Notes: generated from the sequence alone by a model not told the origin. Numbered from the stretch's first letter, positions 1 to 21,924 are shown. The stretch: DNA of 21,924 nucleotides from a virus (IMGVR_UViG_2609459845_000023:1-21924), one strand, 5' to 3'. Made by a program: numbers and translations.

Positions 1-1284
1 TTACTTCTTCGCCTCTGCAACCACTTTACTACCCACGCCGCGGTTATTGTATTCCCACATGCGGTTGTAGTTAGTGTCATTCAGATTGCGCTGTATTTCG
101 TCGTTATCATCTACGCTGCCGGTATTACCCGCAAACGGACGATTAGAGATCACCGCATCGGCCCACGGTTTAGCCGTGTTAAAACCTTCGTTGATGGCGC
201 TATCACGGATCACCACCTGACCGTTGGTATTGGCATCAACATCCAGCGAGCGGCCCAGTTGCGCCACACCATCACCGAAAGCATTGAAACGGCTGTTTAC
301 GGCGAGGAAACCGTAGTAAATGTTGGACAGCGTAGCCGGTGCAAACACATACGCTTCTTGCTGAGTACGTGAGTTCACCACGCGGAATTCGGTGTTATCG
401 AACACCACTGCGCCGCGACCAGAAACGATATCCACATCCCCTTCAATGTAGCTGTTGGTCACCAGCGTACGCGGCTGACGATTTGTTTCCAGACGGTTCT
501 GCACACCGCTGTTGGTGACAAAGAAGGTGTTCTGACGACCGAGAATGTTAACGTTGTTAATCTGTACCTGGTCACCATCAGTACGCAGTGCCACCGCCGG
601 ATGGTTACCTGCATCTACGCTATCGCCCAGCGTGTTTTCGATGGTCAGATTTTGCAGTTGCAGGCCATTGTTTTGTGACCAGAAGACCGCAGAGCAGAGA
701 ACACCGATACTGTCGCTGCGTTTGCTCTGGCAGCTATCGTACATATACCACGCTGGTTTACCTGGCATATATTTGCCGCGCGGGTTGACGTCGTGACGCC
801 AGTCGGCAGGGCTCATGCCACCATCAAGGGAAAGCCCAATCTTCACATCAATCGGTTTTTCACCTGTACCGTACAGAGTAATTCCACCCGGAGCGGCAGG
901 GACATATACCGTTCCCTGATACTCACCAGGCATCACGGCAATATACTGGCGCTTGTTGGTACGCTTGATAATTGCCGCATCTACCGCCGCCTGAATCGTG
1001 GTATGCGTTACACCTTGAGTGCCCGCCGGGCCGACAACAAAGTCAGGTTGCGCAGGCAGGGTAATCGGGGAAGGATTCCACGCTGCAGCACCTGGTGTCA
1101 GGGATGCAAAATAGTGTTGAGCATCGAAATTCTGCGCTTCTTTTGCCGACAGAATCGGGCGAGAAGAGGTACCAGGCGCGGTTTGATCAGAAGGACGTTG
1201 ATCGGGCGGGGTTGAGCTACAGGCGGTCAGCGTCACGCCAAAAGCCAATGCCAGCGCCAGACGGGAAACTGAAAATGTGTTCAC
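1..1284 (-). CDS. ybhC: host outer-membrane lipoprotein YbhC (pectinesterase-fold / acyl-CoA thioesterase family)
   Basis: 427-aa ORF from track; N-terminal lipoprotein signal MNTFSVSRLALALAFGVTLTAC (lipobox LTAC); recognised as E. coli YbhC, the gene flanking attB-lambda on the gal side; GC-normal composition. Confidence 0.85.
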   Translation of the reverse strand: MNTFSVSRLALALAFGVTLTACSSTPPDQRPSDQTAPGTSSRPILSAKEAQNFDAQHYFASLTPGAAAWNPSPITLPAQPDFVVGPAGTQGVTHTTIQAAVDAAIIKRTNKRQYIAVMPGEYQGTVYVPAAPGGITLYGTGEKPIDVKIGLSLDGGMSPADWRHDVNPRGKYMPGKPAWYMYDSCQSKRSDSIGVLCSAVFWSQNNGLQLQNLTIENTLGDSVDAGNHPAVALRTDGDQVQINNVNILGRQNTFFVTNSGVQNRLETNRQPRTLVTNSYIEGDVDIVSGRGAVVFDNTEFRVVNSRTQQEAYVFAPATLSNIYYGFLAVNSRFNAFGDGVAQLGRSLDVDANTNGQVVIRDSAINEGFNTAKPWADAVISNRPFAGNTGSVDDNDEIQRNLNDTNYNRMWEYNNRGVGSKVVAEAKK

Positions 1285-6860: not shown

Positions 6861-7642
6861 GCAGCCACCTTCTGCTCAGAGGCTTTCTGTTTCAGGAATC
6901 CAAGAGCTTTCACTGCTTCGGCCTGTGTCAGTTCTGACGATGCGCGAATGTCGCGGCGAAATATCTGGGAACAGAGCGGCAATAAGTCGTCATCCCATGT
7001 TTTATCCAGGGCAATCAGCAGAGTGTTAATCTCCTGCATGGTTTCATCGTTAACCGGAGTGATGTCGCGTTCCGGCTGACGTTCTGCAGTGTATGCGGTA
7101 TTTTCGACAATGCGCTCGGCTTCATCCTTGTCATAGATACCAGCAAATCCGAAGGCCAGACGGGCACACTGAATCATGGCTTTATGACGCAACATCCGTT
7201 TGGGATGCGACTGCCACGGCCCCGTGATTTCTCTGCCTTCGCGGGTTTTGAATGGTTCGCGGCGGCATTCATCCATCCACTCGGTAACGCAGATCGGATG
7301 ATTACGGTCCTTGCGGTAAATCCGGCATGTGCAGGATTCATTGTCCTGCTCAAAGTCCATGCCATCAAACTGCTGGTTTTCATTGATGATACGGGACCAG
7401 CCATCAACGCCCACCACCGGAACGATGCCGTTCTGCTTATCAGGGAAGGCGTAAATTTCTTTCGTCCACGGATTAAGGCCGTACTGGTTGGCGACGATCA
7501 ACAATGCGATGAACTGCGCATCGCTGGCATCACCTTTAAATGCCGTCTGGCGAAGAGTGGTGATCAGTTCCTGTGGGTCGACAGAATCCATGCCGACACG
7601 TTCAGCCAGCTTCCCTGCCAGCGTTGCGAGTGCTGTACTCAT
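6857..7642 (-). CDS. bet: lambda Bet single-strand annealing protein (Red-beta)
   Basis: 261-aa [69 protein letters not shown]..., recognised as lambda Bet. Confidence 0.97.
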
Positions 7643-14239: not shown

Positions 14240-14680
14240 ATGAAAAAACTAACCTTTGAAATTCGATCTCCAGCACATCAGCAAAACGCTATTCACGCGG
14301 TACAGCAAATTCTTCCAGACCCAACCAAACCAATCGTAGTAACCATTCAGGAACGCAACCGCAGCTTAGACCAGAATCGAAAGCTTTGGGCTTGCCTTGG
14401 TGACGTCTCTCGTCAGGTTGAATGGCATGGTCGCTGGCTGGATGCAGAAAGCTGGAAGTGTGTGTTTACCGCAGCATTAAAGCAGCAGGATGTTGTTCCT
14501 AACCTTGCCGGGAATGGCTTTGTGGTAATAGGCCAGTCAACCAGCAGGATGCGTGTAAACGAATTTGCGGAGCTATTAGAGCTTATACAGGCATTCGGTA
14601 CAGAGCGTGGCGTTAAGTGGTCAGACGAAGCGCGACTGGCTCTCGAATGGAAAGCGCGATGGGGAGATCGGGCTGCATGA
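14240..14680 (+). CDS. ninB: NinB (Orf recombination mediator, nin146)
   Basis: 146 aa from MKKLTFEIRSPAHQQNAIHAVQQILPDPTKPIVVTIQERNRSLDQNRKLWACLGDVSRQVEWHGRWLDAESWKCVFTAALKQQD..., recognised as lambda NinB. Confidence 0.93.
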   Translation: MKKLTFEIRSPAHQQNAIHAVQQILPDPTKPIVVTIQERNRSLDQNRKLWACLGDVSRQVEWHGRWLDAESWKCVFTAALKQQDVVPNLAGNGFVVIGQSTSRMRVNEFAELLELIQAFGTERGVKWSDEARLALEWKARWGDRAA

Positions 14681-15205
14681 CTATCAAATCAAATACGCCA
14701 GCACACGACAAGGACTGCTGGCAAACGCCGCTTTGGCTTTTTGATGCACTGGATATTGAGTTTGGATTCTGGCTGGATTCGGCAGCGAGCGACAAAAAAT
14801 GCTCTGTGCGCTCACTGGTTAACTGAGGCCGACGACGCGCTAAATTCTGAGTGGATAAGCCACGGTGCAATCTGGAATAACCCACCGTACAGCAATATCA
14901 GGCCGTGGGTGGAAAAAGCCGCTGAGCAGTGCATACAACAGCGACAGACGGTAGTTATGCTTGTGCCAGAGGATATGTCAGTCGGATGGTTCAGCAAGGC
15001 TCTGGAGAGTGTCGACGAAGTTCGCATTATCACTGATGGACGGATTAATTTTATCGAACCATCGACAGGGCTGGAGAAGAAGGGAAACAGCAAAGGCTCC
15101 ATGCTGCTGATTTGGCGACCGTTCATCAGTCCTCGACGGATGTTTACTACCGTATCCAAAGCGGCATTGATGGCGATCGGGCAGGGCGTCAGGAGGGCGG
15201 CATGA
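14677..15205 (+). pseudogene. phage Dam-family DNA N6-adenine methyltransferase, frameshifted in an A6 run (14794..14799)
   Basis: two track ORFs in different frames (14617..14826 and 14741..15205) join into one protein, MTIKSNTPAHDKDCWQTPLWLFDALDIEFGFWLDSAASD / KNALCAHWLTEADDALNSEWISHGAIWNNPPYSNI..., if one A is removed; NPPY motif present; start overlaps the ninB stop (ATGA). Confidence 0.75.
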
Positions 15206-17198: not shown

Positions 17199-17720
17199 AT
17201 GAATATCGTGCCACTTAATTACAAAGGTGAAATTGTCAGTTTCAACACTGATGGTTGGATCAACGTCACAGGTGTTGCTGAGAGATTTGGAAAACGCATT
17301 GATAACTGGATGCGTTTGGCAGAAACGCTTGAATACGTTCGTGCTTTAGACGAAGCGTTGACCGGGAAAGAATCTCAAATTTTACATCCCTCACAATCGA
17401 GGTATGTAAAAACCAGCAAGGCACGAAAGGACAGGGGTGGTGGTACGTGGCTACATCCAAAACTTTCAGTTGCATTTGCCCGTTGGTGTGATGCTCGTTT
17501 TGCTGTGTGGTGCGACCTGCACATTGATAGTCTGCTTCGCGGTGAACTGACTGAGCAGCAGAAATATGAGCAAGCATGTCGCATTCGCGATGACCGGAAA
17601 TCAAAAGCCAGCAATGGGGCAAGAGAGATGGCTCGCTGGCGATGGGATAAGCCGGTTATTGAAGCAAATGTTGAGTACTGGCGCGAGCAACTGCAGTTGA
17701 CTCTCGATATCGCGTGCTGA
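17199..17720 (+). CDS. KilA-N domain protein (173 aa)
   Basis: track ORF; N-terminal pattern DGWINVTGVAERFGKRIDNWMRLAETLEYVRALDEAL fits the KilA-N / APSES-type DNA-binding signature; SD GGTAGG upstream. Confidence 0.65.
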   Translation: MNIVPLNYKGEIVSFNTDGWINVTGVAERFGKRIDNWMRLAETLEYVRALDEALTGKESQILHPSQSRYVKTSKARKDRGGGTWLHPKLSVAFARWCDARFAVWCDLHIDSLLRGELTEQQKYEQACRIRDDRKSKASNGAREMARWRWDKPVIEANVEYWREQLQLTLDIAC

Positions 17721-18177
17721 TGGCAAACGCAAAACTGCGTTATCGGAAAAATCAAAGCATTACGAGAACTGAGCAACGGCTATCCATTACAAAGCCCATC
17801 TACGGGTGGGCTTGATAATGAAACCGGAATTTATTCTTGGCAACCAGTTACGGCAGTACCACAAAACAACCCAAGCCAGTAAGTGGGGAAATAACACTGG
17901 CAGCCACTGAAAGATGAACCTCCTGCCTTATGGCAAAAAAGATTCTTTGTTGTGGCGGACTGATGGAAAGACATCGGTTATTGCAGAGGCCATTCAATGA
18001 GTGGTCTCGACAATGGCTTATACCCTGCACGGGATAACTTAACTGATATCCCTTTTAACGGATAAACGGAGCCAACAATGGCAGAGCTCACAGACAAACA
18101 AGAGCTGTTTGCCCATCCGGATGATGTGTATGTCGGAGAGTGTGTGATTTATACCGGCTACCGGGCAAGTTCCGGAT

Positions 18178-18513
18178 ATGTCATCCTTTACCTATACAAC
18201 AACCGGGTCTGGTGTGGTTATTCGCCTTCCTGGCAATATGATCATCCAGATGGATGTAGGTACAACGGACAGTAACGGATTTTATAATGTGAATATGGGT
18301 GTGGCGATGAGCTCATACCAGGTATTTGCAGTAGAAGGCCATGTCTCTGGATGGACAGCCTCCGGCGGTATCTATCAACTCTTAACCGTGTATGGTGCCG
18401 AAAAGGTTAACGCAGGGAGCTTTAATGTTCGTTCTGCAACCTGGAGTTCGTCCGACCACAACTTTACTGCGCAGCCAACAGTTTTTAACTGGATTGCTAT
18501 CGGGAGAGCGTAA
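18178..18513 (+). CDS. probable 3' remnant of a side tail-fibre gene (C-terminal domain, 111 aa)
   Basis: track ORF; stop overlaps the tfa start (TAATG) as in stf-tfa pairs; the frame is open from about 18148; overlapping ORF 18078..18275 in another frame suggests a 5' truncation or frameshift. Confidence 0.45.
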   Translation: MSSFTYTTTGSGVVIRLPGNMIIQMDVGTTDSNGFYNVNMGVAMSSYQVFAVEGHVSGWTASGGIYQLLTVYGAEKVNAGSFNVRSATWSSSDHNFTAQPTVFNWIAIGRA

Positions 18514-18977
18514 TGTCTGATTCAGATTTTTTATATAGTGCCAAAAGCAACGCTTTTGTTTTCAAGGAAAGCTCTCTGTTAAAGACGGACGAATACAGTG
18601 ATGCTGTGCCGGTTGATATGGGTGTTTTCGCCGAATTTTACCCAACAGTTAAAGACGGCATGCGAAGGGTTGCAGGGCCAGACGGCATGCCTGCGTGGGA
18701 AAAAATTCCCGAGCCAACTAAAGAAGAACTGTTCGCGCTTAAACTGGCACAGGCCGAGTCAAAGAGAGATGCGTTAATCTCTGCGGCTAACGCATATATA
18801 AGCAGCGAACACTGGCCTTCTAAGCTCATTCTGGAGATCATCACCGATGAAGAGAAGGCGACCTTTAAAGAGTGGCTTGCTCATATCGATGCCTTGAAGA
18901 AAATGAAGTTTAATGATGAAGCAGCGATATTAAGTGACAGCCTTGAATGGCCGCCACGTCCTGCTACCGCGTCGTAA
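18513..18977 (+). CDS. tfa: tail-fibre assembly protein (Tfa family)
   Basis: 154-aa ORF; C-terminal region (...EELFALKLAQAESKRDALISAANAYISSEHW...EEKATFKEWLAHIDAL...LEWPPRP) resembles the conserved Tfa C-terminal domain ending in an EWP..P motif. Confidence 0.75.
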   Translation: MSDSDFLYSAKSNAFVFKESSLLKTDEYSDAVPVDMGVFAEFYPTVKDGMRRVAGPDGMPAWEKIPEPTKEELFALKLAQAESKRDALISAANAYISSEHWPSKLILEIITDEEKATFKEWLAHIDALKKMKFNDEAAILSDSLEWPPRPATAS

Positions 18978-20025
18978 TCTCCTGGCGTTTCAGCGCCGAA
19001 CGGGCCAGACGGATAAACGGTTTTTCAATTATCCGGTTAGCTGCGAATGCCATCATCAGAGAAGCAACAAGCATGCAGGGGACAAGGACGCCCCAGTGCT
19101 TATACTCCCCAATCGGAATAAATTTCTGTACCATCTGCATTACCAGCCAATGACAGAGATAAATGCTATATGTCAGGTCGCCAAGAATTGATAATGCTTT
19201 TATCTCTCCCGCCTTTGATTTATCCAGCATCAAAACGCCCACAAAAAATATTGCAGCAAAAAAGAACATTCCTTCTATACCGCTGGTATGGTCTGAGAAT
19301 GTGAAGAAAAAATAGAAAAATAAAGCCGATGCGAATATTGCTATAGTAATAGCAGTTAAGTTAGGAAGAATTAATTTAAACCTTTCAAATATCATTCCAG
19401 ACATAATCCCAAACGCAAACTCATAAAACATCGTTGAGCCTGCCAGCCTGATTAGACCATAAAACGGCGAGTCAGCAGGAGGGATAGCGGTGACTGTGCT
19501 GTTAAACGACAACCCTCCATTAAACGCAACCTGTAGCACTGCCGGGATTGCAATCAGCAGCGCGATACACAATGAACCTCGATACCGGGTCGTTATTGCA
19601 GCGCACATACAGAAAATAGCGTAGAACGATATTTCATAAGTCAATGTCCACGCGGGCGGTAGCAGATTAAATCCAAACGCCGGAGCGGGTAGTGTGTAAT
19701 CGTTGTGCAGAACCAGAAAACCCCTGGATAATTGTGTGGCAGGCGCAGGTTGCAATAACAACGAAACCAGTAACACAACAAAAAATAGCGGGTATATTCT
19801 GGCGAATCGTTTAACAATAAATACCGTTGGTCTGCATTCCTCAGGATTTATTGTTGACCAATAAATAATAAATCCAGAGATAATGAAAAAAATATCAACG
19901 CCCACCATGCCATTTGCAAATAAATTAGCAAACCAGCGCGGAGTAAAAAAAGAAAAATGGTACAGCACCACAAGTAGCGCTGCTATTCCACGAAGATACT
20001 GGACGGAAAATATTTTATTGTTCAT
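18964..20025 (-). CDS. acyltransferase-3 family integral membrane protein (O-acetyltransferase-like)
   Basis: track ORF 18964..20037 (TTG); likely ATG start at 20025 (MNNKIFSVQYLRGIAALLVVLYHF...); multiple hydrophobic helices; AT-rich; converges on tfa with a 14-nt overlap. Confidence 0.8.
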   Translation of the reverse strand: MNNKIFSVQYLRGIAALLVVLYHFSFFTPRWFANLFANGMVGVDIFFIISGFIIYWSTINPEECRPTVFIVKRFARIYPLFFVVLLVSLLLQPAPATQLSRGFLVLHNDYTLPAPAFGFNLLPPAWTLTYEISFYAIFCMCAAITTRYRGSLCIALLIAIPAVLQVAFNGGLSFNSTVTAIPPADSPFYGLIRLAGSTMFYEFAFGIMSGMIFERFKLILPNLTAITIAIFASALFFYFFFTFSDHTSGIEGMFFFAAIFFVGVLMLDKSKAGEIKALSILGDLTYSIYLCHWLVMQMVQKFIPIGEYKHWGVLVPCMLVASLMMAFAANRIIEKPFIRLARSALKRQEITTR

Positions 20026-20059
20026 TATGTGGCCCAATTTTCATTGAGCCACAATTATA

Positions 20060-21346
20060 TCAGAAAACCCCCTCAACCCACAACTGGCCATCAAAGCACA
20101 CCATTCTAAACAGACGTGATGCGGCGTTCCCGCCAGCCGCCACTACCAAATCAGCATCAAATATCGCCATGCCATTAGCCGGGTGGTACAGGTCGCCGAC
20201 AGCCTGTTTAAGCGTCAGATCACCAGCTCCCGGCGTTGCGCTTCGGACCATCAGATAAAACGAACTCCCGTCCGGGTAAACAGTTGGCAGCGCATTGATT
20301 GTCACGTTACCGGATAACCCCTCGGTGAAATAACAATGTCCAGTTTCAGGCCACCAGATTAAATCAGTAGCGTTGATATTGCTCGTTCCCGCTACATCAA
20401 TGAGCTTGTGGATTTTCCCTGGCTGTAAATCCCCGGAGTTTGCACAGAACAGCGCCGACAGTTGCTGCAATGCGGTTTCACTATCGCGCCAGTTCAGCAC
20501 ATTTGTAATAGTCCCGCGCTTAATTCTGCCGTCAAACAAAACGGGGCGCTCTGGCGTGAACGTCACGAAGTCTTTCGTGTCTACAAAATAAGTCCATTTT
20601 TTTGTGTCGAAAAAATCCGCATAGATTCTGATCGTGCCGTCCGGCAAATAAACCAGCGCCGGGCCTTCCGCCGCCTGAGTAAACGGAATTACTGATAATT
20701 TCGTGAACTGTCCTGAGAAACAATTTGAACAATACACCTCAATTTTTTTGGTGATTTCATCTTTTATTGTCAGGTAATACGTCTGGAATATTCTGGAAAA
20801 AACAGAATCAATCATGTTTTTTGGTTCGATATTTACCGCAACCGGATCGTAAAACTCCAGTCTCTCAACATCAGAACAGACAGAATAGAATGTTTTAAAA
20901 CTTTTGACATTTACACCTTTACTGTCAGTCTGATCGTTGTAATAACGCAGGCTGACTATCAGGAACAGATTTTCGTCATCAACAAACCATTCAGGAGCCC
21001 ACACGTCAGTGGTCACCAGATCTGAACCCGGTAATCGTTTCCCACAGACTGGCGTATCGCCAAGCTTAATTCGTACCAGTTCCCACACGGTTAAATCACG
21101 TGAGCGCCAGCAATCGACGTCATAAACGTTTTCTGTATATCCTGATACGGCTATTAACCACCAACCGTTGTGATAAATAATTGATGGGTCTCTCCCTAAA
21201 ACTTCTCCAGTTCCACCAATAGCCCAAAGGAATTGAGCCTTTATTTTTTCGAATCGTTCTCCATCATAAGATAATGCCAGGTTTACTTTTGAGCTTTGGT
21301 CACTTTCAAAAAAAGAACCAACAAACAGCGCGGAATTATTTTTCAC
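20060..21346 (-). CDS. hypothetical protein (428 aa), upstream partner of the acyltransferase
   Basis: track ORF; only possible start is GTG at 21346 (in-frame TAA two codons upstream) with weak SD; no signal peptide; family not recognised. Confidence 0.65.
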   Translation of the reverse strand: MKNNSALFVGSFFESDQSSKVNLALSYDGERFEKIKAQFLWAIGGTGEVLGRDPSIIYHNGWWLIAVSGYTENVYDVDCWRSRDLTVWELVRIKLGDTPVCGKRLPGSDLVTTDVWAPEWFVDDENLFLIVSLRYYNDQTDSKGVNVKSFKTFYSVCSDVERLEFYDPVAVNIEPKNMIDSVFSRIFQTYYLTIKDEITKKIEVYCSNCFSGQFTKLSVIPFTQAAEGPALVYLPDGTIRIYADFFDTKKWTYFVDTKDFVTFTPERPVLFDGRIKRGTITNVLNWRDSETALQQLSALFCANSGDLQPGKIHKLIDVAGTSNINATDLIWWPETGHCYFTEGLSGNVTINALPTVYPDGSSFYLMVRSATPGAGDLTLKQAVGDLYHPANGMAIFDADLVVAAGGNAASRLFRMVCFDGQLWVEGVF

Positions 21347-21436
21347 GATGATTTACCGATTGGATATTTATATTTAAAGACAATTTAAATTTATAATAAA
21401 TGTCCCAAAATTGCTCACTATTTGGTTATGGGAAAT

Positions 21437-21480
21437 AACGATCAAAATCTTCAAATCGATCGGTTGCAACGATCAAAATC
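21437..21480. repeat. 13-bp direct repeat AACGATCAAAATC x2 (31-bp spacing) with three GATC sites
   Basis: read directly at 21437..21449 and 21468..21480; GATC at about 21440, 21458 and 21471; lies in the divergent intergenic region. Confidence 0.6.
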
Positions 21481-21490
21481 CATGCATTGG

Positions 21491-21510
21491 TACTGTATGT
21501 ACATACAGTG
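21491..21510 (+). promoter_or_regulatory. LexA operator (SOS box) upstream of the umuD-like gene
   Basis: TACTGTATGTACATACAGTG contains a perfect 16-bp palindrome CTGTATGTACATACAG fitting CTGT-N8-ACAG; 16 bp upstream of the start codon. Confidence 0.8.
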
Positions 21511-21525
21511 CCAATGAGGTGAGTT

Positions 21526-21924
21526 ATGGTTGCCATGTCACAGTTTCCCAGCCCTGCTGCTGATTACCACGAGGATGCGATCTCACTCGACAAGGAGTTG
21601 ATACGAAAACCAGCGGCGACATTCTTCATCCGTTACGCTGCTACATCATGGCGGGAAGGAATCAAGAGAGGTGCTCTGCTGGTCATGGACACATCGCTGA
21701 CTCCGGTAGACGGAAGCCTGGTGATTTGTCATCTGAATGACCAGATACGGCTGTTGCGTCTCAGGCTGCTGCCAAAGGTGCACCTGGAAGAACTGGACCA
21801 CGCTGATAAAAAGACATGGATAACTGACGACGATTGTGAGGAACGAGTCGTAGTGAAGGGGGTGGTGACGTACATCATCAATGACGCGCGGACTGGTGAG
21901 TTTGATGACTACCCGCTGAAGTGA
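21526..21924 (+). CDS. UmuD'-like protein (LexA/UmuD S24 family), 132 aa
   Basis: track ORF; FPSPAADY motif and overall alignment to the E. coli UmuD C-terminal domain; SD GAGGTGAG upstream; begins near the position of the UmuD Cys24-Gly25 cleavage site. Confidence 0.7.
   Translation: MVAMSQFPSPAADYHEDAISLDKELIRKPAATFFIRYAATSWREGIKRGALLVMDTSLTPVDGSLVICHLNDQIRLLRLRLLPKVHLEELDHADKKTWITDDDCEERVVVKGVVTYIINDARTGEFDDYPLK

Follow-up and report, generated by a model that had tools for sequence, protein, structure and literature searches.

Operators controlled jointly by OxyR and Dam are a textbook route to epigenetic inheritance in enterobacteria. To our knowledge, the genes under their control specify surface structures (Ag43, gtr and opvAB) or, in phage Mu, the modification function mom, whose states are thought merely to report methylation status. 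The DNA analysed here is a 21,924-nucleotide stretch of Escherichia coli prophage sequence (IMGVR_UViG_2609459845_000023:1-21924; this whole stretch is called the window). At its right end lies humD, a gene for a UmuD′-like protein, preceded by a LexA box and a cluster of three GATC sites. On comparison with the described systems we favour, with moderate confidence, the interpretation that the cluster (21428–21473) is a Dam-methylation-sensitive OxyR-type operator which would gate the humD promoter together with LexA.

Dam methylation excludes OxyR at gtr, agn43 and mom (PMC2909390, PMC13337833, PMC3378877); these papers deal with those three loci and not with the present one. At gtr, methylated GATCs within the OxyR half-sites abolish OxyR binding, GATC pairs 13 bp apart lie inside the half-sites, GATC3 and GATC4 are located at −46 and −33, and the promoter-overlapping position, OxyR(BC), is repressing (PMC2909390). 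The half-site consensus ATAGnTnnnAnCTAT is quoted in the gtr and opvAB papers, in which an extended half-site spacing is canonical for reduced OxyR (PMC2909390, PMC4856963), and functional opvAB half-sites score 7–10 of 10 against this consensus (PMC4856963). In Mu, Dam and OxyR together govern the mom promoter, Pmom (PMC3378877), and whether mom is expressed in a phase-variable manner is not known (PMC2909390).

Architecture of the GATC cluster and its described counterparts

The three clustered GATC sites start at 21440, 21458 and 21471, with spacings of 18 and 13 bp and 31 bp between the outer two, and occupy a 179-bp spacer between a minus-strand open reading frame (ORF) of 428 aa and the plus-strand 132-aa ORF of humD. 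The outer sites lie in two copies of AACGATCAAAATC, which are 100% identical, start 31 bp apart and form the sole direct-repeat family within 21300–21560; no further copy with 0–1 mismatch was found elsewhere in the window. The original prediction had placed two repeat copies at this distance with a third GATC between them, near a perfect LexA box in a divergent control region, and each of these positions was recovered exactly, with the two ORFs diverging from the spacer. An exact 13-mer direct repeat within 50 bp was found in 2 of 300 windows simulated with a first-order Markov model (P ~0.007). Three GATCs inside 35 bp occurred in 28% of the simulated windows, which means that GATC density by itself is not significant, and across the window GATC is slightly under-represented (66 observed, 86 expected). 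Because density alone is not unusual, the case for a function must rest on architecture and comparison, and it is the exact architecture and its conservation in diverged relatives that raise the cluster above chance.

The GATC sites form arms of two dyads, sites I and II (Table 1). The direct repeats of the original prediction are present, but rather than iterons they are better read as the equivalent right arms (AnCGAT) of a pair of inverted-repeat half-sites separated by three helical turns. Site I scores 7/10 against the OxyR consensus and site II 8/10. Their starts lie at a distance of 31 bp, and the 21.9-kb window has no other OxyR-consensus pair at half-site spacing. By our own count on the fetched Mu and E. 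coli K-12 sequences, the same consensus gives 8 and 8 for the agn43 half-sites and 7 and 7 for those of Mu.

The site upstream of Mu mom has three GATCs with the same 18- and 13-bp spacings, the same layout of two dyads and the same orientation toward the downstream gene. In an ungapped alignment (Mu, ACGATCGAATCAATTAAATCGATCGGTAATACAGATCGATTATG; window, ACGATCAAAATCTTCAAATCGATCGGTTGCAACGATCAAAATCC) 27 of 44 positions are identical, including the central 12-mer AAATCGATCGGT, and the Mu counterparts of sites I and II are ATAGaAaacGaCGAT and ATCGgTaatAcAGAT. The Mu site is also found at the right end of the phage genome just past the tail-fibre genes, and expression of the gene it guards is harmful to the host (PMC3378877). 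The promoter arrangement is different. The Mu site is upstream of the promoter and shares sequence with the 3′ end of gin, with 78 bp from GATC3 to the com start, and Pmom also requires the phage activator C (PMC3378877, PMC4461284), whereas in the window the site overlaps a −35-like hexamer and is followed by the LexA box before humD. No C-, com- or mom-like gene was found in the window.

At agn43 (flu of E. coli K-12), three GATCs are spaced by 19 and 13 bp, one base off the window. The agn43 half-sites ATAGaAtaaAaCGAT and ATCGtTtatAtCGAT, counterparts of sites I and II, start 32 bp apart, one base more than the 31 bp of the window, and the distal 14-mer AACGATCAATATCT differs from AACGATCAAAATCT of the window by one mismatch (13/14). 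The architecture and spacing of the cluster are thus those of two established OxyR/Dam sites, to within this one base. The agn43 operator is carried on the prophage remnant CP4-44, and OxyR–Dam competition gives heritable ON and OFF states there (PMC13337833). It differs in lying at and immediately downstream of the transcription start (GATC1 is where the annotated isrC start falls), in having no LexA box and in its cargo, an autotransporter adhesin.

The gtr and opvAB operators of Salmonella and P22 likewise have GATC pairs 13 bp apart inside an OxyR half-site, and the promoter-proximal pair at about −46/−33 makes bound OxyR a repressor; the cargo is prophage-borne and modifies the cell surface (PMC2909390, PMC4856963). 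These operators have four GATCs and three to four half-sites, which allow alternative OxyR positions for activation or repression, whereas the window has three GATCs and two half-sites, and no alternative activating OxyR position was found there. A switch as defined for gtr has its four GATCs in two 13-bp pairs and three half-sites (PMC2909390); the cluster, whose three GATCs give a single 13-bp pair and two half-sites, is not of this kind. A pap-type switch, which has two GATCs 102 bp apart within Lrp sites and a PapI-like co-regulator (PMC2909390), was also ruled out, as the spacings here are 18, 13 and 31 bp and the module has no papI-like gene.

Conservation of the proposed operator with the LexA box

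The sequence CTGTATGTACATACAG at 21493–21508 is the sole perfect CTGT-N8-ACAG in the window, and the 20-mer around it agrees with TACTGTATATATATACAGTA, of the TACTG(TA)5CAGTA type, at 17 of 20 positions counted by eye. The box ends 16 bp upstream of the humD ATG and is kept in relatives; the P1 record annotates a LexA site at the equivalent position before humD. The composite of three GATCs, a LexA box 21–22 bp later, a Shine-Dalgarno sequence and a start codon is rare, because a pattern specific for it matched only six IMG/VR loci and two metagenome contigs. These eight composites belong to four sequence families. One is the window type (L089, L106 and L131 are identical to the window), and the other three are diverged sisters. 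In the sisters the downstream gene encodes a UmuC-like Y-family polymerase (Pfam IMS; L129), a UmuD′-like protein (L069 and L086), or a 79-aa protein of PHROG 3893 followed by a UmuD′-like protein (L125 and L130). The sister composites were absent from 5,426 complete E. coli genomes. Among the five distinct composites, the invariant columns number 13 of 15 in site II, 15 of 20 in the LexA box and 9 of 15 in site I, compared with 5 of 23, 3 of 17 and 2 of 15 in the flanks. In these diverged families site II equals the LexA box in conservation, and the three-GATC architecture is kept together with a LexA box ahead of translesion-synthesis genes in all four.

All sister families have TTG(A/T)A(A/G) and TATACT separated by 18 nt. 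The −35 hexamer (TTGAAA or TTGTAG) falls within site II, and the TATACT −10 overlaps the LexA box. The TTG of this −35 is invariant in the composite alignment and was seen only in the LexA-linked families, not in LexA-free sites with three GATCs. Because the −35 lies inside site II, an OxyR-type protein on this site would cover the −35 of a LexA-controlled promoter, a geometry that resembles the repressing OxyR(BC) position at gtr (PMC2909390).

The sister composites (L125, ~760–860, minus strand; L086; L129, ~7045–7140, minus strand; L130) also have a divergent hydrophobic ORF of 30–32 aa with an acidic tail (MWWVIGILAVIVLFAALVIRYRLRDMDDDY and variants). It starts 68–70 nt left of GATC1 and has no match in PHROG or NCBIfam. 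Similar small ORFs (containing LLWIVGGLLAWGIVGFIWCRWFTDDDDDEY) lie left of LexA-free three-GATC sites in L073 and L126, and the window has AT-rich DNA and the 428-aa gene in this place.

A broader IMG/VR scan used a pattern that fixed only GATC1 and site II and left the left arm of site I unconstrained. It returned 63 loci, of which about 10 were chance matches in GC-rich coding sequence and the rest AT-rich and intergenic. ATNG stands exactly 7 nt upstream of CGATC1 in 32 of 39 distinct sites of AT-rich context and in 0 of 9 GC-rich matches. Many of the AT-rich matches are Mu-like mom sites, and at least 15 further families (within L067–L129) carry operators of the mom/agn43 type with three GATCs beside diverse prophage genes. 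The neighbours include a GT25 lipopolysaccharide glycosyltransferase (L074, L075), an EAL-domain protein (L077 group), a lipoprotein (L085, L094), DUF968 (L105), a dynamin-like GTPase (L118) and a Com-like protein (L120). Since these genes are unrelated accessory genes, the three-GATC site is a portable regulatory cassette, and it seems far more widespread than the few studied cases.

Table 1. Features of the control region and adjacent genes, in window coordinates (a dot denotes no strand)
Feature	Position	Strand	Description
OxyR-type half-site I, ATGGgAaatAaCGAT	21428-21442	+	ATGG-N7-CGAT; right arm holds GATC1 (21440-21443)
Direct repeat copy 1, AACGATCAAAATC	21437-21449	+	Right arm of site I plus 3′ flank
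GATC2, central Dam site	21458-21461	.	Within 12-mer AAATCGATCGGT, identical in Mu mom
OxyR-type half-site II, ATCGgTtgcAaCGAT	21459-21473	+	ATCG-N7-CGAT dyad; arms are GATC2 and GATC3
−35-like hexamer TTGCAA, candidate humD promoter	21464-21469	+	Embedded in site II; compare sister-family hexamers
Direct repeat copy 2, AACGATCAAAATC	21468-21480	+	Right arm of site II with GATC3 (21471-21474), plus 3′ flank
32-bp palindrome extending the LexA box	21485-21516	.	RNA hairpin would abut the Shine-Dalgarno sequence
Weak −10 candidate GGTACT	21489-21494	+	19 nt after TTGCAA; AGTACT in L002-type alleles
LexA operator 20-mer, TACTGTATGTACATACAGTG	21491-21510	.	Perfect CTGT-N8-ACAG core
humD, 132 aa	21526-21924	+	UmuD′-like accessory subunit of translesion polymerase V; Shine-Dalgarno sequence GAGGTGAG at 21516-21523
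Divergent 428-aa gene	20060-21346	−	First gene of leftward operon; tail-fibre C-terminus-like
Acyltransferase-3 O-acetyltransferase	18964-20037	−	Second gene of leftward operon
attP/attB-like core	21859-21924	+	66 bp; overlaps humD 3′ end

Proposed regulation of humD and competing explanations

We infer OxyR as the binder, repression of humD and any heritable ON/OFF behaviour from the arrangement of the sites. At unmethylated GATCs, a host OxyR tetramer, for which the half-site spacing is that of the reduced form, would bind both half-sites. Bound OxyR would cover the −35 in site II and shut the humD promoter, and would also shield the GATCs from Dam. Methylated GATCs would exclude OxyR and leave LexA as the sole repressor of the humD promoter, so that humD output would require a methylated, OxyR-free site and SOS induction at the same time. 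Expression of humD probably needs both DNA damage and a methylated site.

The core of the original prediction, a Dam-dependent switch layered on SOS control, is supported by sequence evidence, while its tie to a frameshift-prone Dam gene of the same prophage is not. The Dam methylase ORF (PF05869; 14677–15205) is split across two frames at an A-run near 14790, with an N-terminus MTIKSNTPAHDKDCWQTPLWLF... from the ATG at 14677 and a C-terminal part in the ORF 14741–15205; it could be a pseudogene, a sequencing error or slippage-prone. This gene belongs to the lambdoid part of the prophage, whereas the operator belongs to a separate mosaic block that occurs on other backbones, and no link between the two was found. 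E. coli has its own Dam and OxyR.

Several observations weigh against an OxyR-type operator acting on humD. The locus has been read from sequence alone. An OxyR-consensus pair is not rare in itself, as 10% of simulated windows contain one, and it is the coincidence of the half-site pair with the GATC cluster that counts; the ATCG and CGAT arms score on the OxyR consensus partly through containing GATC. T-N11-A dyads are generic for LysR-type regulators, and another member of this family could bind. A consensus promoter scanner at default stringency found no promoter in this region of the window, and the −10 of the window lineage is poor (GGTACT or AGTACT, with one extra base in a 19-nt spacer), which makes the promoter assignment in the window, and hence the identity of the occluded promoter, uncertain. 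An alternative promoter, TTCAAA (21450) and CAAAAT (21474) separated by 18 nt, would lie entirely inside the operator. The divergent small ORF of the sisters and the divergent operon of the window mean that a leftward promoter could be the main target. The humD genes of P1, N15, phiKO2, HK639 and HK140 have a LexA box only, and the closest humD relative outside E. coli, in Phytobacter ursingii (L013), is without GATC1 and GATC2.

The comparison with these other lineages shows what humD can do without. P1 humD/lxr, N15 gp26, phiKO2 gp23 and the UmuD-like gene of HK140 belong to the same family as humD of the window (~49–55% identity by tblastn) and have a LexA box immediately upstream, often in a divergent region at the tail-fibre end or beside att, but none has an OxyR-type site with three GATCs. 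HK140 has a single GATC, inside a TTGATC −35. At 2940–2975 of the P. ursingii sequence, GATC1 is now CGCAG and GATC2 is now CGACAG, and the sequence retains the LexA box and the −35 as well as the right arm of site II; this is an apparent loss of the methylation-sensitive layer. Since other humD lineages do without it, the operator is dispensable for humD regulation and is an optional extra layer.

Another humD lineage, seen in phage BTP1 (L136, ~18520–18570) and in L015, L024 and L034, has a different arrangement. A single ATCG-N7-CGAT dyad directly abuts the LexA box, and its two GATCs are 13 bp apart with the first inside a TTGATC −35. No good partner half-site was found 21–33 bp upstream (≤4/10). 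In BTP1 the dyad faces a divergent gtrA-gtrC acetyltransferase operon, which echoes the layout of the window.

It is possible, although we think it unlikely, that the OxyR/Dam site mainly drives the leftward operon and produces phase-variable acetylation of surface polysaccharide, with humD as a LexA-controlled neighbour. The operon consists of an O-acetyltransferase gene and the gene of a rare tail-fibre-like protein, and O-antigen modification operons are the classic phase-variable prophage cargo of OxyR and Dam (PMC2909390, PMC4856963). The conserved divergent 30–32-aa membrane ORF left of GATC1 in the sisters points the same way, the small ORFs beside the LexA-free sites of L073 and L126 suggest that the cassette can serve a leftward gene, and a promoter candidate (TAGTGA and TATTAT separated by 16 nt) lies just left of site I. 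However, no convincing leftward promoter is conserved across the families, and only the LexA-linked families have the TTG of a rightward −35 in site II. The gene under control in Mu and in agn43 is to the right of site II, which is also where humD lies here. A 78% homologue of the 428-aa gene (L012), the only diverged one with upstream DNA, is on a contig that ends 86 bp upstream of it and has no similarity in these 86 bp, so that the site is not obviously travelling with the operon. Control of the leftward operon is compatible with control of humD, and both may coexist.

The GATCs might instead work without OxyR, through SeqA on the cluster while it is hemimethylated after fork passage or a direct effect of methylation on RNA polymerase affinity as at IS10 pIN, and humD expression would then be coupled to the replication state. 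The 31-bp distance between GATC1 and GATC3 puts both on one face of the helix, as would favour cooperative binding by SeqA. At opvAB, SeqA has an ancillary role (PMC4856963), and a GATC inside a TTGATC −35 is kept in the humD lineages of HK140, L015, L024, L034 and BTP1. We regard this explanation as improbable, as it leaves unexplained both the conserved parts of the dyads outside GATC (ATNG-N7-CGAT and ATCGGT...A.CGAT) and the spacing match to two OxyR sites. A different regulator, LysR-type or phage-encoded, could bind the repeats with the GATCs incidental. The dyads are of the generic LysR-type form, the 13 bp of the exact repeat exceed what the OxyR consensus calls for, and binding of HdfR, a LysR-type protein, is blocked by GATC methylation (PMC6735912). 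No regulator gene accompanies the module in any backbone inspected, though, and the closest sequence matches are the OxyR sites of Mu and agn43, which makes this explanation very unlikely. We give equally little weight to the idea that the cluster is a chance feature or a non-functional relic, a fragment of an ancestral mom/agn43-like cassette. The ordinary GATC density, the degraded look of the rightward promoter in the window, the two GATCs missing in P. ursingii and the 14 window-type copies, which are too similar to reveal selection, would all agree with a relic, but site II is conserved like the LexA box across families with diverged flanks, and the 13-mer repeat has a P of ~0.007.

If OxyR and Dam do act on humD, the locus could further be a heritable epigenetic switch on mutagenic capacity that divides lysogens into armed and disarmed lineages, a proposal we hold to be doubtful. 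In an armed lineage the site would be methylated and humD SOS-inducible, supplying a pre-activated UmuD′ analogue for host UmuC and giving high damage-induced mutagenesis. In a disarmed lineage OxyR would be bound and humD silent even during the SOS response. Competition between OxyR and Dam for the three GATCs after every replication would set the state of the lineage. Reciprocally, the divergent O-acetyltransferase operon might be activated by bound OxyR, and the surface-antigen state would then be linked to mutability.

Genomic setting and significance

The humD product matches the NCBIfam equivalog NF051876 (HumD) with 171.1 bits (cut-off 120; model positions 3–128 of 129), PHROG 811 (UmuD-like) and Pfam Peptidase_S24. 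Its N-terminus is at the UmuD′ position, with the motif FPSPAADY from residue 7, and in the P1 record HumD is said to complement E. coli UmuD′ functionally. The divergent 428-aa gene stands alone on the opposite strand, upstream of the O-acetyltransferase gene. Its product is very rare (four clusters at 90% identity among 5.8 billion proteins), resembles a 715-aa Serratia tail fibre over the C-terminal 88% of that protein (31% identity) and shows faint similarity to GH43/GH32 beta-propellers. The O-acetyltransferase was identified by Pfam Acyl_transf_3 (4.6e-34) and PHROG 3333 (O-acetyltransferase, 1e-56). The one-sided resemblance of GATCAAAATCC to TTATCAAAAACC, judged by eye, and the tail-fibre-like gene on the opposite strand, as in the Mu G segment, were grounds to consider a relic hix/gix site of an invertible tail-fibre segment. 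This was ruled out, as there is no second half-site and no invertase ORF, and no inverted partner was found in 17700–21924.

The palindrome around the LexA box (CATTGGTACTGTATGT/ACATACAGTGCCAATG) has a predicted RNA fold of −21.8 kcal/mol (z = −3.9). A 211-bp alignment of 11 copies contains only three single-nucleotide polymorphisms, all in the outer arms of the palindrome and with pairing preserved (G..C to A..T at 21489/21512; T-A to T-G at 21491/21510). All four haplotypes are paired, but 70 of 500 shuffles gave the same result, so that the covariation is not significant. An Rfam search of 21200–21924 returned no credible RNA family.

The host is E. coli, as ybhC at 1–1284 is 100% identical to many E. 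coli genomes. Beside ybhC lies a lambda-type integrase gene and then a lambdoid early and lysis region encoding a CI-like repressor, O, P, NinB, the Dam methylase, lysozyme, Rz and a KilA-N protein. In the KilA-N/DUF2560 region, near 18087, the similarity to lambdoid phages stops, and a block with tail-fibre, acyltransferase and humD genes starts at 18153, in the middle of a tail-fibre gene. No head or tail genes are left between this block and the lysis genes, and the prophage is therefore defective or recombinant. The block is ordered as the 3′ end of the tail-fibre gene, a tail-fibre assembly gene, the O-acetyltransferase and 428-aa genes on the minus strand, the control region and the 132-aa gene. 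It (18153–21924) is 99.5–99.97% identical to a block in other E. coli assemblies, where it forms the right end of two kinds of prophage, most with a Mu-like baseplate and others (L006, L010) with a second set of tail genes, inserted next to dacD-sbmC-yeeA-yeeX. Neither the 5,426 complete E. coli genomes nor the cultured-phage collection contained the block, apart from matches to its last 66 bp. These 66 bp match the annotated HK140 attP and the dacD-proximal site of E. coli chromosomes. HK140, HK544 and mEp234 share this att core, as do many E. coli chromosomes at their empty site, and because humD has its 3′ end in the core, integration reconstitutes the end of the gene.

The operator belongs to a known class. 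Its fusion to a LexA-repressed promoter of translesion-synthesis genes was found neither in the literature searched nor in cultured phage genomes. None of the papers in that literature connects OxyR/Dam with prophage genes of the humD or umuD kind or describes a two-input promoter (LexA and methylation state) for a translesion-synthesis gene, although such absence is not proof of novelty. Additional repressors beyond LexA are already known for rumAB of the integrative and conjugative element R391 (PMC8460599).

Our analysis indicates that the mom/agn43 operator is a portable cassette that occurs beside a variety of prophage accessory genes. In the window this operator is fused to the LexA-repressed promoter of a phage UmuD′ analogue, and in sister elements to a UmuC-like polymerase gene. 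If OxyR and Dam control humD as proposed, the capacity for error-prone repair supplied by the prophage would be set by DNA damage and also by the cell's methylation state or epigenetic lineage, which would be a new control layer on the SOS mutagenesis of mobile elements. If the state were also heritable, the locus would provide bet-hedging in SOS mutagenesis.

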